A DNA stretch of 64,000 nucleotides. Source: Chiloscyllium plagiosum. Taxonomy: Eukaryota. Within the stretch, counting starts at the first letter, position 1. Each line of letters starts with the position of its first letter. The notes beneath the pieces were generated by a model. That model made no database searches. It was given only the letters and a program-made list of their open reading frames with translations, and was not told the origin of the DNA. The stretch is taken from positions 84,602,350 to 84,666,349 of the forward strand of contig NC_057713.1 in NCBI RefSeq assembly GCF_004010195.1. The letters are read 5' to 3'. Below are positions 10,632 through 61,537 of this stretch, piece by piece. A program made the position numbers and the translations under genes.

Positions 10632-11349
10632 GTATGTTTCTGTACTGTTATTGGCTTGGATTCTGTAGTTATAAAATAAATTGATGATTCAAAATTCCCT
10701 CAATGTTTAAACTTTGCAAGTATCCAGAAATATATTTTGCTAAGATATGTATATAAATCATTTGTATAGTCTAAGTATTGTGTCAACATTTACAGTCCTT
10801 TAGTCTTGCTGGTAGTACTTAACTTTTAACTAAAGAGCAAGTCTCACTATTCAGATTCTTTTGTAGAAGGAAAATAATTACAATGGATGATATTGCTAGT
10901 CCTTTGTTTAACATGTGTTCTTTGGAATTTTCAATACTTTTGTTTATATTTTTAATTTTATTTGAACAAAAATGTTGAGTTACAAATTTGAAGGTAAATG
11001 TAAATGAAGAATTTACATTAGCATTAGCAGAGAAACAGTTATTAACCCATCATCAATTTTCTATGTAAAAATCTGTTGTTGTGGAGCTAGACCTAAATAA
11101 CGTTCAAAACATTTCCCAATTATGATGACCTATTCCTATTTGTATTGTTATTCTTTGAAATCAAACAAACAACATATTATCATTCTAAAATCTGTGTTTA
11201 AGATTATCATAATTTCATTATTAATCAGGGATATTGATGATAATTATCCTTTAAGTGGTAATGCAATTTATCAGATTTAATTTTTATTTCAAGAATGGTG
11301 AATTCACAGTTGAAAATAATTTGCGTAGAATCATGACTATGTGTAGGAG

Positions 11350-11564
11350 GAAGTGAGGACTGCAGATGCTGGAGATCAGAGTCAAGAGTGTGGTGCTGGA
11401 AAAGTACAGCAGGTCAGGCAGCATCCAAAGAACAGGAGAATCGACGTTTCGGGCATAAACCCTTCAGGAATCGTGATGATGGGCTTATGTCCGAAACATC
11501 GATTCTCCAGCTCCTTGGATGCTGCCTGACCTGCTGTGCTTTTCCAGCACCACATTCTTGACTC
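11350..11564. mobile_element. Fold-back short PLE-derived element with decayed hammerhead motifs
   Basis: Inverted arms ~11379-11465 and ~11478-11564; same family as 21405, 57934 and 58837. Confidence 0.85.
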
Positions 11565-21404: not shown

Positions 21405-21626
21405 GGTAGGTAAAAACAATGACTGCAGATGCTGGAAACCAGATTCTGGATTAGTGGTGCTGGAAAAGCACAGCAGTTCAGACAGCATCCGAGGAGCAGT
21501 AAAATCGACATTTCGGGCAAAAGCCCATCATCCCCTGTATTCCTGATGAAGGGCTTTTGCCCGAAACGTCGATTTTACTGCTCCTCGGATGCTGTCTGAA
21601 CTGCTGTGCTTTTCCAGCACCACTAA
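21405..21626. mobile_element. Fold-back short PLE-derived element, 15-bp TSD tccagatggatatca (21390-21404 and 21627-21641)
   Basis: Inverted arms ~21445-21529 and ~21545-21632; inserted into CR1. Confidence 0.9.
21540..21573 (+). ncRNA. Minimal type-I hammerhead ribozyme motif
   Basis: CUGAUGA-A-GGGC-UUUU-GCCC-GAAAC-GUC; helix I is weak (uc/ga). Confidence 0.7.
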
Positions 21627-23193: not shown

Positions 23194-23357
23194 ATGGATA
23201 TCAGTATTAACTAACAGTAAAGAGGAGGCATTAAACATGGCATTCAGAGGAGAGCAAAGCAGTGGAGAGAACAGCATAGAGGACCTAACCAAAGCCATCA
23301 TTGAAGATGTGCAGCGGATGCCTGGCAATGATGTCTGTTGTGATTGTGGAGCTCCAG
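23194..23357 (+). CDS. ASAP1: ASAP1 exon (end of PH, start of ArfGAP): WISVLTNSKEEALNMAFRGEQSSGENSIEDLTKAIIEDVQRMPGNDVCCDCGAP
   Basis: ttttttaacag acceptor; 164 nt; first CxxC of the ArfGAP zinc finger; AFRGEQS..ENS.EDLTKAII is ASAP1-like rather than ASAP2-like; donor is a weak CAG|gtcttt. Confidence 0.93.
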
Positions 23358-33819: not shown

Positions 33820-33859
33820 GCAAACGTTTCGTCCCCTGTCTAGGTGACATCCTCAGTGC
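33820..33859 (-). ncRNA. Minimal type-I hammerhead ribozyme motif (GUU site)
   Basis: gca-CUGAGGA-UGUCACCUAGACAGGGGAC-GAAAC-GUU-ugc on the minus strand. Confidence 0.7.
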
Positions 33860-34298: not shown

Positions 34299-34338
34299 GC
34301 ACTGAGGATGTCACCTAGACAGGGGACGAAACGTTTGC
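34299..34338 (+). ncRNA. Minimal type-I hammerhead ribozyme motif (GUU site)
   Basis: gca-CTGAGGA-TGTCACCTAGACAGGGGAC-GAAAC-GTT-tgc. Confidence 0.7.
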
Positions 34339-56400: not shown

Positions 56401-57933
56401 TTGTAATTCCCTTCTTGCAATTTTGTTCATCACAAAGATAGCCACTCTGTTAACGTTTGATCTCATATAAAATACTCCGTTTGCCAGTATACAAACACAC
56501 GTGGCAATCTTCCCAAGAATACTATACAAAGATTTAGGTGTTTTAAAATTAGTTTTAGCTTTCCATTTATGATACTGTTGTCTGAAATTGAAATGAAAGG
56601 TTATATAAAGCATATATGGAATTTTTATACAGTACTTATTTTTTATTTTAAAGAACAAAGAAAATTTACAGCCCAGAACAGGCCCTTTGGCCCTCCAAGC
56701 CTGAGCCGATTCAAATCCACCATCTAAAGCTGTCGCCCAATTCCTAAGGATCTGTGTCCCTCTGCTCCCCACCTACTCCTGCATCTGTGCAGACAGAACC
56801 TAAATGAATCTACCGTGCCTGCCTCTACTACCTCTGCTAGCAACGCATTCCAGGCACCAACCACTTTCTGTGTAAAGTACTTTCCGCATGTATCCCCCTT
56901 AAACTTTTCACCTCTCGCCTTGAACACATGACCTCTCGTTATTGAATGCCTCACCCTGGGAAAAAGCTTACTTCTATCTATCCTATCTATATCCTTCATG
57001 ATTTTGAAGACTTCAATCAGGTCCCCCCTCAATCTTCTTTTTTCTAATTAAAACAATCCTAACCTACTCAACCACTCTTCATATCTAGCACCTTCTATAC
57101 CAGGCAACATTCTCGTAAACCTTCTCTGCACCCTCTCCAAAGCATCCACATCCTTTTGGTAATGTGGTGACCAGAACTATACACGGTAGTCTAAATGCGG
57201 CCGAACCAAAGTATTGTACAATTTTAACATGACCTGCCAACTCTTGGACTCAATACCCTGTCTGATAAAGGCAAGCATACCATATACCTCCTTGACCACT
57301 CTAACCACCTGTGCAGCCACCTTCAGGCTACAATGGACCTGAACTCCCAGATTTCTCTGCTCATCGACTTTTCCCAAGGCTCTTCCGTTTATAGTATAGT
57401 TCGCTCTAGAATTAGAGTTCCCAAAATGCATCCCCTCACATTTGCCTGGATTGAACTTCACTGCCACTTCTCTGCCCAACTGTCCAGTCTATCTATATTC
57501 TCCTGTATTCTTTGACAGTCCCCTATGCTTTCTACTACTTCACCAATCTTTGTGTCATCTGCAAACTTACTGAACAGACCAACAAAGCCCTCTTCCAGTT
57601 AATTTATGTATATTACAAACAAGAGTGGCCCCAGCCCCGATCCCTGTGGAACACCACTGGTCACCTTTCCCCATTTCGAGAACCTCCCTTCAACCACTAC
57701 TCTCTGTCAGCTGTTGCTCGTCCAGTTCTTTATCCATCTAGCTAGAACACCTTGACACCATAAGACTTCACTTTCTTCATTAGTTTACCATGGGGAACCT
57801 TATTAAATGCCTTAATAAAGTCCATGTTTATGACACCTACAGCCCTTCCTTCATCTATCAACTTGGTCAGTTTCTCAAAGGACTCTATTTGGTAAGGCTT
57901 GATCTCCCCCGTACAAAACCTATCACTGATAAG

Positions 57934-58073
57934 GCAACATCCCTCCTTATTCCTGAAGAAGGGCTTATGCCTGAAACGTCGAATCTCCTGTTCCTTGGAT
58001 GCTGCCTGACCTGCTGCGCTTTACCAGCAACACATTTTCAGCTCTGATCTCCAGCATCTGCAGCCCTCACTTT
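57934..58073 (+). mobile_element. Single-arm short PLE-derived element, 14-bp TSD ctatcactgataag
   Basis: TSD at 57920-57933 and 58074-58087; inserted in CR1. Confidence 0.9.
57949..57984 (+). ncRNA. Minimal type-I hammerhead ribozyme motif
   Basis: auuc-CUGAAGA-A-GGGC-UUAU-GCCU-GAAAC-GUC-gaau; helix I auuc/gaau. Confidence 0.75.
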
Positions 58074-58836
58074 CTATCACTGATAAGCCCAATCTTTTCC
58101 AAATATAAGTAGATTTTATCCCTCAGTATCCCTTTTTTCCAGCAACTGACATCAGGCTTACTGGTCTGTAGTTACCTGGAATTTCCCTACTACTCTTCTT
58201 GTACAGGGGGACAACATTAGCAACCTTCCATCCTCTGGCACCTCACCTGTGTTTAAGGATGCTACAAAGATATATGTCAGGGTTCCAGCTATATCCTCTC
58301 TCGCCTCCCTCAGCAACCTGGGATAGATCCCATCCAGTCCTGAGGATTTGTCCACCTTAATATCCTTTAGCCTACCCAACACATCTTCCCTCCTTATGTC
58401 AACGTGATCCAGAGCAAGCAAACTTCTATCTCTAATCTCAACATTCATCAAGTCCCTCTCCTCGGTGAATACTGATGCAAAGTAATCATTGAGAATCTCA
58501 CCCATTTTCTCAGGTTTGACACACAACCTTCCTTCCTAATCCTTTAGTGGACCAACCCTTTCTCTAGTTACCCTCTTGCTTCTTATATATGAATAAAAGG
58601 CCTTTGGATTCTCCTTAATTCTGCTCGCTAAAGTTATTTCATGATCCCTTTTAGCCCGCTTGCTTCCTCGTTTAAGATTGGTCCTCTCTCCCGATATTCT
58701 TCTAAGGCCCACTCTGTTCTTAGCTGCCTGAACCTTATGTACGCTTCCCTTTGCCTTTTGGCTAGTAGCACGATTTCTCCTGTCATCCACGGTTCACGAA
58801 TCTTGCCTTTCCTATCCCTTGTTTTCAAAGGGACAT

Positions 58837-59052
58837 CTTCGAGGAGAAAGTGAGGTCTGCAGATGCTGGAGATCAAAGTTGAAACTTTATTGCTGGAACA
58901 GCACAGCAGGTCAGGCAGCATCCAGGGAACAGGAGATTCGACGTTTCGGGCACAGGCCCTTCCTGAAGAAGGGCCTGTGCCCGAAACGTCGAATCTCCTG
59001 TTCCCTGGATGCTGCCTGACCTGCTGTGCTGTTCCAGCAATAAAGTTTCAAC
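58837..59052. mobile_element. Fold-back short PLE-derived element with perfect 88-bp arms, 14-bp TSD tttcaaagggacat
   Basis: Arms 58875-58962 and 58968-59055, loop CTGAA; TSD at 58823-58836 and 59053-59066. Confidence 0.93.
58960..58993 (+). ncRNA. Minimal type-I hammerhead ribozyme motif
   Basis: uuc-CUGAAGA-A-GGGC-CUGU-GCCC-GAAAC-GUC-gaa. Confidence 0.75.
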
Positions 59053-61537
59053 TTTCAAAGGGACATGCCTATCCTGCCGTATATTCAACCGATCTTTGAA
59101 AGACTCCCACATATCAAATGTGCACTTTCCTTCACATAGCTGCTCCCAGTCCACATGTCCCAGCTTCTGCCAAATTTTGATATAATTGGCCCAATTTAGT
59201 ACTCTTCCCTTAAGACCATTTTCATCCCTGTCTACAAGTATTCTAAAACTTACAGAATTGTGATCATTCTTTCCAAAGAAATGCCTCACTGCAACTTCTA
59301 CCAACTTGCCTGGTTCATTCCCCAACACCAGGTCCAATGTAGCCCCTTCCTTTGTCGGACTATTAACATACTGCTCTAGAAAGCTTTCCTGAACATTCCT
59401 TACAAATCCTGCCCCATCCAGACCTCTGACACTAAGTGTATCTCAGTCAATATTGGGAAAATTAAAATCTCCCATCACCATCACCCTGTTGCCTCTACAT
59501 CTTTCCATAATCTGTTTACCTATTTGTTCTTCTACCTCACGCTCACAGTTGAAGGCCTGTAATACAGCCCCAACAATGTAACTGCACCGTTCTTATTTCT
59601 CCGCTCTACCCATAATGCCTCACTGCTCAAGCCCTCTATAGTGCCCTCCTTTAGCACAGCTGTGATATCATACCTGACCAGCAATGGAACTTCTCCCCCC
59701 ACTTTAACTTCCCTCTCTGTCCTGACTGAAGCATCCATATCCTGGAACAGTTAGTTGCCCATCATGCCCTTCCTTCAACTAAGTCTTTGTCATCACAATA
59801 ACGTCATACTCCCAGGCACCAATCCAAGCCCTAAGTTCATCTGCCTTACCCACTATACTCCTTGCATTAAAGTACATGCACTTCAGGCCACAAATTCTTT
59901 TGCATTCATCTGCTCTCTGCCTACTCTTCCTCTTGGTAATGCTAACTTCATGATCCTTAAGGTCTCCACCTCACTGTTCCCAATGCAAATGCACAGTGAA
60001 GTTTCCACCTCACTGTCTACTAGTCTTCACTTCACTTCAGGTTCCCAGCCCCCTGCCACATTAGTATAAACCCTCCCCAACAGCAGTTGCAAAAACTCTC
60101 CCAAGGACATTCGTTCCAGTCTGGTTCAGGTGTAGACCATCCATTTTGTTGGCTCCTCCTCTTTAACTTCTCTCCTAGCTCCCAGAATTCTGCTTTCAGG
60201 ACCTAATCTTGTTTTTTTTACTTATACCATTGGTGCCTATATGCTCCACGATAACTGGCTGTTCACCCTCCCCTTTCAGAATGCAGTGCAGACGGTCGGT
60301 GACATCCGTGACCCGAGCACCTGAGAGGCAACATACCATCTGGGAATCTCATTTTCAGCCACAGAACCGCCTATCTACTCCCCTTACAATAGAATCTCCT
60401 GTGACTATGGCCCAATTAGTCTTTTTCCTGCCCTTCTGAACAGCAGTGCCCACCATGGTGCCACGATCCTGGTAGCTGCTGCCCTCCCCTGGTGAGCCAT
60501 CTCCCCGAACAGTATCCAAAACGGTATACCTGTCTTGGAAGGGGAATGACCGCAGGGGACACCTGCACTGCCTTCCTACTCTTTCTCTGCCTTTTGGTCA
60601 CCCATTCACTCTCTCCTTCAACAATTCTAATCTGCGGTGTGACCAATTCACTAAACGTGCTACTCACGACCTCCTCAGCATCGCAGATGCTCCACAGAGA
60701 GTCCATCCACAGCCCAGAGCCATCATATGGTCAAACAAGAGCTGCAGCTGGACATATTTCTTGCAAGTGTAAGAGTCAGGAACTTCAGCCATGTCCCTGA
60801 GCTCCCACATCAAGCAAGAGGCACATGCCACCGGTCTGAGGTCCCCTGCCATTGTAAGCCTTAGCTTTATATCAACTAACTAAAACCAAACAATGCATTT
60901 AAAAATATGAAAGAAAAGAAAAACAGACCTTACCTTAGAGTCCTTTTCTTCTGTTTTTGGTGGGTGGAGGGGAGGGGGGTTGAAGCAGGAGGGAGATACT
61001 ACACATGTAGTATCTCTGCTTTAACCACTCCCCAAATATACACTAAGTCCTTACCTTCCCTGTAACCTCCTGGTCTGCATCTTCACCTCTGCTCTGTCTC
61101 CCGCTGCTCCCGGACAGGCAACAGGTTGCAGGCTTCAAAGGTAAGTATTTATACTGTTTGCTTATCTTCCTGGAAACTTTCTGGTCCCAAGGTCACCTCC
61201 ACTCTATCTTCCACTGCTCCCTTAGGAAAAAGGATTTATAATGAATTTCCTACTTAAAAATAATTGAAAATAAATGTATGCTGATATTTAGTTACTTCCA
61301 GTAACAGTAACATAGGTACACCACTGGAAGTTAACAAATCCATTGAAACTTGTATTAGTTAAATCAACCAGTTGGTATTTGACAAATGCAAAGGGATCCA
61401 TTGTTAGCCATTTTTCTTAGTTAGTGCTAACAGAGCCACTTTCTTGGGAACCCACACTTTGTATTATGCATTCCTGCAAATTTCACTGCCTTAAACATCC
61501 ACGACAAAAAAAAACGATTGTTGCAGTGCATGAAGTA

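Follow-up and report, generated by a model that had tools for sequence, protein, structure and literature searches.

A perfect hairpin bounded by a direct repeat

The window, a 64,000-nt stretch of the Chiloscyllium plagiosum genome, contains a perfect hairpin whose five-nucleotide loop coincides with the start of a hammerhead ribozyme core. We asked how this hairpin arose and whether the position of its loop has any meaning. Sequence comparison confirmed the arrangement described in a first-pass annotation: the two arms (58875-58962 and 58968-59055) are perfect reverse complements, matching at 88/88 positions, the loop at 58963-58967 reads CTGAA, and the minus arm lacks CUGA, beginning at +5 (element positions are numbered from the C of CTGA). 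The hairpin is far beyond chance, with a folding energy of -197.8 kcal/mol for the unit (z = -23) and 0/200 shuffled sequences folding equally well. A 14-bp direct repeat bounds the region 58823-59066 on both sides (Table 1). The insertion unit comprises 230 bases, with arms of 88 and 126 nt and no open reading frame. The minus arm runs 38 nt (58837-58874) past the end of the plus arm, which marks the structure as something other than a single strand simply folded onto itself; the first-pass annotation does not mention this extension. The arms carry no mutations, indicating that the insertion is very young. As set out below, the locus is a real, young and ordinary member of a known insertion type. 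In our view, the 230 bases are probably the inserted, hammerhead-bearing end module of a Penelope-like element (PLE), a young retroelement of Neptune type, with both arms likely reverse-transcribed from one RNA and likely joined at TTC/GAA.

Table 1. Features of the hairpin locus and its surroundings (window positions)
Feature	Position	Strand	Basis or remark
Solitary, older copy of this PLE end module	57949..58075	+	88-89% identical; whole sense hammerhead motif; own flanking duplication
Decayed LINE receiving the insertion	58158..59700	-	Reading frame across the site
Left copy of the target-site duplication (TSD), 14 bp	58823..58836	+	Direct-repeat check
38-nt PLE 'tail', minus arm only	58837..58874	-	End at about +131; family mode +125 to +127
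Inverted arm, first base +5, without CUGA	58875..58962	-	Sequence comparison
3-nt TTC/GAA overlap, presumed to join the arms; equals 5' strand of hammerhead helix I	58960..58962	+	Sequence; joining role inferred
Minimal type I hammerhead motif	58960..58993	+	Helix I 3 bp, helix II 4 bp, without helix III loop
Hairpin loop CTGAA, first five bases of the hammerhead core	58963..58967	+	
Direct arm, tail-less, end near +91	58968..59055	+	Last three bases overlap the TSD
Right TSD copy	59053..59066	+	Direct-repeat check

The parent element is probably a Neptune-type PLE

The plus arm was 93/93 identical to a module lying downstream of long reading frames that encode RT and GIY-YIG domains at two loci (L214 and L218). 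These parent frames were 893 and 649 aa long. RVT_1 scored above its cut-off, and GIY-YIG within the long frames reached 21.2-21.5 bits, just under the cut-off of 22.6, and the EN piece alone passed it with 27.5 bits (Pfam). The arm was also 93/93 identical to the module that follows a GIY-YIG-coding stretch in two further loci (L118 and L119), and 92/93 identical in a third (L120). The parent frames showed DKG and a CxxxxCxxC linker. A CX2-5CxxC motif in the linker before GIY-YIG is described as a mark of the Neptune and Nematis clades (PMC8557442), and from its sequence the parent appears to be a Neptune-type PLE, the motif being common to Nematis.

Several features of endonuclease-bearing (EN+) PLEs were found together. 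The parent ORF, with RT and, at the C-terminus, GIY-YIG, lies upstream of the module; the locus is a 5'-truncated copy with an adjacent inverted copy, as are 32/72 sampled insertions; a tail in the 30-40-bp range is present at a single end (38 nt here, and in 28/28 classifiable pairs); and the TSD measures 14 bp here and 13-17 nt, junction overlaps included, in 31/40 sister loci. The insertion unit of EN+ PLEs has already been described in PMC3846280 and PMC8557442, with an inverted copy alongside, a tail on one side only and a TSD.

Other members of the family showed further rearrangements. The N-terminus of the 893-aa frame (L214, 883-3561) holds a fourfold repeat of about 37 residues each. 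In twelve loci (L111-L122), the inversion breaks at one and the same point, where the endonuclease-coding piece starts (12/12, in a search that favoured such copies), which suggests that a deleted, inverted derivative was itself copied. On several contigs, a tandem junction from about +206 to -18 creates a hammerhead-bearing repeat unit of about 224 nt; it was seen in 8/30 loci examined, plus L102 (L102, L167-L171, L174, L185 and L191), and this tandem unit may be a retrozyme-like derivative. Locus L108 has two arms, each beginning at -4, that are separated by about 135 nt of unrelated sequence (807-941).

Hairpins of this kind are abundant and their junctions vary

Exact matches to a 22-nt arm marker were counted in the 3.56-Gb source genome. 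The marker occurred 19,590 times (control, 0), and 1,905 head-to-head pairs had a gap of at most 19 nt (control, 4). The exact junction of the present locus was found in 204 genome copies, about 11% of the short-gap palindromes. Among the first 50 short-gap palindromes listed, 9/50 had the CTGAA-loop junction and 11/50 had another junction type.

These counts bear on two claims of the first-pass annotation. The loop was held to lie at a special position; this was not supported, since single and two-armed family copies alike have their starts just upstream of the core, and CTGAA is one of many junctions. What places the loop in the hammerhead core is that copies end 3-7 nt upstream of the core and are presumably joined at TTC/GAA. 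The arms were also said to share variants absent from other copies. In the window, the other copies of the family (77-89% identical) do lack those variants, yet what the arms show is just the young subfamily's own sequence, with its 19,590 genome matches. We also weighed a cap-derived extra base at the junctions and discarded the idea, as target overlaps and natural upstream bases fit the letters equally well.

Long and short arms are strictly paired

To describe arm geometry, we took the first 100 marker hits on one contig (C1), which correspond to 73 loci, and tallied 72; one locus (L050) was left out because its second arm was not recovered, and two (L059 and L086) were tallied as single despite small extra tail pieces. 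The sample contained 32 two-armed and 40 single insertions. All 40 single copies ended near +91 (16) or near +126 (24). Both ends fell within these site windows in 28/32 two-armed pairs, and every one of these 28/28 combined a long arm with a short one (P about 1e-9, from the single-copy frequencies of 24:16); two loci (L043 and L063) represent one duplicated insertion, leaving 27 independent pairs. The remaining 4/32 pairs had one long end and another end outside both windows. What looked like a second pair of end sites was the known pair again, seen within a tandem copy; one locus (L017) ends at about +125 and +255.

At the other end of the module, 52 of the 104 arms started at -7..0, 20 at +1..+10 and 6 near the cut site at +28. 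Cleaved RNA was rejected as the usual template, given that only 6/104 arms start near the cut site. Arms running further upstream than -13 numbered 13/104, indicating that the 5' stop is not absolute. Single copies started at -7..0 in 21/40 cases. Among the 28 pairs, the arm reaching further 5' was the short arm in 16 and the long arm in 9, with 3 ties.

Both arms probably derive from one template

A one-base variant of the core, present in 351 of 12,036 core matches (2.9%), served as a marker of template origin. One arm carried this variant in 26 palindromic loci, 14 of which had a readable second arm. The variant was on both arms in 11/14 readable loci and discordant in 3/14 (P 4e-15 under independent templates); L063 was discordant as well. 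Later mutation would explain the discordant loci, and so would two templates. The first-pass proposal that both arms came from one template in a single recent event is therefore upheld by the concordance of 11/14 loci for a variant at 2.9% and by the single TSD around the unit. One RNA molecule, two RNAs from a common source locus and subsequent homogenisation between the arms would all be consistent with this concordance.

Twin priming on a single RNA as the probable insertion mechanism

Seven observations constrain the mechanism: family identity, the TSD, the one-sided tail, variable junctions, the +91/+126 pairing, arm concordance and the 5' pile-up at -7..0. The priming and joining steps that follow are what we infer from finished insertions, no intermediate having been observed. 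The endonuclease would make a 14-nt staggered cut in the target DNA. Of the two cut DNA ends, one would prime internally near +91, the second near +126, and both cDNAs would be extended to about 3-7 nt ahead of the hammerhead core, probably the 5' end of the RNA. The cDNA 3' ends would then anneal by microhomology, with flaps trimmed and gaps filled. At the present locus, the terminal GAA of the short-arm cDNA would pair with TTC in the long-arm cDNA, placing CTGAA exactly in the loop; the loop is CUGAA because TTC and GAA flank those five bases where the cDNAs end. The tail is absent from the arm reaching further 5', so it is not a copy of that arm.

In vitro work on an Anolis PLE reports that both target strands are cut and extended and that reverse transcription starts from two internal sites bracketing the tail; the protein is a predicted dimer, and the template is uncleaved RNA (PMC11167929). 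Put in full, the reading would be that a PLE dimer twin-primes a single RNA at +91 and +126, one site per DNA end, that the cDNAs run to the capped 5' end at hammerhead helix I, and that microhomology joins them; to this complete version we give about an even chance. The transcript may start at -4, a guess that is based on an initiator-like motif. If the complete version holds, the thousands of stubs are a read-out of an unsolved step of PLE integration, and they seed host introns with perfect double-stranded RNA of 85-90 bp.

The main rival of twin priming is self-priming, in which one strand, antisense RNA or cDNA, folds back at TTC/GAA and is copied into a hairpin whose open end is then trimmed unevenly by the endonuclease. 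Antisense-RNA self-priming has been proposed for palindromes at inverted junctions by Arkhipova et al. 2013 (PMC3846280). It accounts for arm identity and for the concordance of variants, a staggered cut of the hairpin would also yield the strict combination of a long and a short arm, and TTC-CTGAA-GAA is a natural 3-bp mini-hairpin. With a fixed cut polarity, however, the tail should keep to one and the same side of the loop, whereas we observed 16:13 among loci sharing the identical junction and 9:16:3 across the sample; this mixed polarity argues against a fixed asymmetric cut. Moreover, single copies, which have no hairpin, end at the same two sites in 40/40 cases, the 38-nt tail of the present locus is not copyable from the short arm, and priming of both strands on sense RNA has been shown in vitro (PMC11167929). 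We therefore regard self-priming as unlikely. Our literature search found no paper stating strict long-plus-short pairing from one RNA; subscription papers or supplements may describe it.

Each palindrome is built anew

The same counts bear on another reading, in which the 230-base palindrome is itself the mobile unit, MITE-like or retrozyme-like, and is copied from a palindromic master. The exact junction is common to 204 loci, and dozens of loci match the whole unit at 96-100%, as such copying would produce. To examine tail polarity, we took 40 other exact-junction loci, the first listed of the 204. The tail was on the core-bearing arm in 16/40 and on the other arm, as here, in 13/40; 1/40 was short plus short, and 10/40 were unclassifiable by ungapped extension. 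Both polarities thus occur at an identical junction (16:13), indicating that these loci do not descend from one master palindrome. In addition, this junction makes up only about 11% of the short-gap palindromes, among many others, and private variants were found on both arms of single loci (L241, L258 and L224). With both polarities and many junction types in place of one palindromic master with fixed ends, the family is not MITE-like. A palindromic master is largely refuted by tail polarity, and we hold copying of the whole palindrome to be very improbable; each palindrome is built anew.

The hairpin lies in an intron with its hammerhead in sense

The insertion landed in a decayed minus-strand LINE at 58158..59700, which we take to be CR1-like from its motifs. 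The same four residues of the LINE frame occur at both TSD copies and the frame runs on across the site, as expected for a target-site duplication. Plus-strand exons of an ASAP-type gene flank the stub, the nearest found lying at about 53.2 kb and 67.3 kb. The stub is therefore intronic, with the hammerhead in sense. ASAP-type ArfGAP exons were located at 23336, 44224, 45810, 49161 and 53193 (+), and further ASAP-type exons at 67302, 91192 and 103910 (window numbering, past the window end). The best match of the ankyrin exon was PDB 1dcq; the other exons were found through motifs, and the label ASAP1-like is presumptive.

The older copy of the module at 57949-58075 sits 1 kb upstream of the hairpin stub. 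Elsewhere in the window, older head-to-head copies of related subfamilies occur at 11345-11549 and 21423-21619; in both palindromes one arm is about 35-49 nt longer, and their junction is unlike that at 58823-59066. Additional hammerhead-like motifs of other repeat families were seen at 34302, 47724 and 43670 (+) and at 33856, 14169 and 31451 (-). Four of these share a longer helix II, and several are in sense within the host gene.

The predicted block of the hammerhead is a by-product

The hammerhead motif consists of CUGAAGA at 58963-69, helix II at 58971-74/58979-82 and GAAAC-GUC, with a predicted cut after 58990. The features of minimal type I hammerheads were present, namely the conserved core, helix II, the palindromic 15.2-16.2 pair and an NUH site (the motif was read by hand and its pairs were checked). 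Rfam gave no match at the gathering threshold in the window, and within 57900-59100 none of its hammerhead families matched even when E was allowed to reach 10; the Rfam miRNA matches within 57900-59100 were generic hairpins, all far below gathering. Helix I is naturally 4 bp, as in the 57949 copy, and the junction leaves 3 bp here. In folding predictions, forcing the hammerhead fold cost 47.6 kcal/mol in the whole insertion versus 0.8 in the plus arm alone, and the pairing probability of helix II fell from about 0.87 to 0.00 with the upstream arm present. Helix I was predicted at a probability below 0.08 even without the upstream arm, and helix II of the 57949 copy was also predicted to form rarely (P about 0.01).

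The first-pass annotation proposed that the hairpin silences the ribozyme. The predicted block of the fold (helix II from about 0.87 to 0.00) and the intronic, sense position bear this out in part, but we found no support for a special loop position or for one that serves to silence a ribozyme. There is also little to silence: minimal monomers are reported to be inactive, the Anolis motif depends on its protein, the junction clips helix I, and 1 kb upstream a sense copy with the whole motif has survived. In published in vitro assays, minimal PLE hammerheads tested as monomers did not cleave (PMC4209133); the hammerhead of Anolis needs its protein, and RNA-seq showed no cleaved ends (PMC11167929).

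A stronger version would hold that the inverted arm has been kept because it silences a harmful self-cleaving intron ribozyme or feeds ADAR or Dicer for regulation. The locus is intronic with its hammerhead in sense, the hairpin is predicted to abolish helix II, and the minus arm is transcribed first; a transient pairing with the older upstream copy is also predicted (106/126 nt). A perfect 88-bp duplex is the type of substrate that ADAR binds. Against such retention, the geometry is the default of the family, with 32/72 sampled insertions two-armed. The reported lack of cleavage by monomeric minimal hammerheads (PMC4209133) and the protein dependence of the Anolis motif, without cleaved ends in RNA-seq (PMC11167929), argue in the same direction, as do the 3-bp helix I, the older sense copy with a whole motif 1 kb upstream and the unmutated arms of a very young insertion. 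Retention for such a purpose seems to us highly doubtful. Our model instead has the arms pairing in the ASAP1-like pre-mRNA, with the predicted loss of the hammerhead fold a by-product that shows no sign of selection.

The locus is probably correctly assembled

Short-read contigs from two studies matched the right junction with 0 differences (X1, 59031-59121; X2, 59029-59224), although their reach into the element was under 31 letters, and none spanned the whole hairpin. An empty allele was sought in the short-read contigs and none was identified. A 244-nt skip joint (runs X1 and X4) was considered and rejected as the empty allele, for which a skip of 230 nt would be expected; the joint carries 13 other letters in X4 and was taken to be a paralogous LINE copy. 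An assembly artefact is thus unlikely, the support being short-read contigs rather than long reads: perfect palindromes do assemble poorly and no contig covers the whole unit, but the 14-bp TSD with a host LINE frame continuous over the insertion, the one-sided tail at the family's usual positions, the right junction in contigs of two studies and the own 13-17-nt duplications of 31/40 sister loci leave a fold-back chimaera of assembly or library scarcely credible.

Comparison with known systems

As a ribozyme, the motif resembles the minimal hammerheads of metazoan PLE pLTRs described in PMC4209133. It has the CUGANGA core, one extra base before helix II, a short helix I and a palindromic C15.2-G16.2 without a helix III loop. 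Helix II is 4 bp here versus 7-8 bp in the Schistosoma families of that report, and unlike in that set, helix I is clipped by the junction to 3 bp and the whole core is on one arm only. The same paper mentions dual hammerhead motifs that lie 100-700 bp from each other on opposite strands; its main text makes no mention of sharks. Non-LTR retrozymes (bioRxiv 10.64898/2026.07.22.740005) are similar in being non-coding, hammerhead-bearing and derived from PLE pLTRs. They are described as head-to-tail tandem units, each with a whole hammerhead, whereas the present locus is a head-to-head pair with one core; at least 2 head-to-tail units with whole hammerheads are not found, and there is no tandem array at the site.

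As an insertion, the closest counterpart in the sources consulted is the EN+ PLE unit exemplified by Pen2a_Av (PMC3846280; PMC8557442). Both have a head-to-head inverted copy, a palindrome at the junction, a parent with RT and with GIY-YIG at its C-terminus, a tail at a single end (38 nt here, 31 bp in Pen2a_Av, 30-40 bp typically) and a TSD around the whole unit. Unlike Pen2a_Av, the stub is minimal, with no ORF and arms of 88 and 126 nt, and its TSD is about 14 bp as against 8-10 bp in the rotifer examples. The route by which PLEs produce inverted, one-tailed insertions is called still undefined in PMC8557442. The element PAc (Poseidon of Anolis carolinensis, PMC11167929) shares the two internal RT starts bracketing the tail, the cutting and extension of both strands, and a hammerhead that stays uncleaved in the copied RNA. 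It differs in that the parent here has the Neptune/Nematis linker motif; the main text on PAc describes neither a strict pairing of one site per strand nor the joining of two cDNAs into a palindrome.

Taken singly, the locus matters little, as one young insertion among thousands. Unlike in the rotifer examples, however, copies here number in the thousands and are hence countable. The copy population supplies countable constraints, namely strict long-plus-short pairing, either polarity, one template source and cDNA ends at the 5' edge of the hammerhead. A further possible outcome is that the introns of this genome carry perfect duplexes in large number. These constraints are testable in the existing in vitro system.
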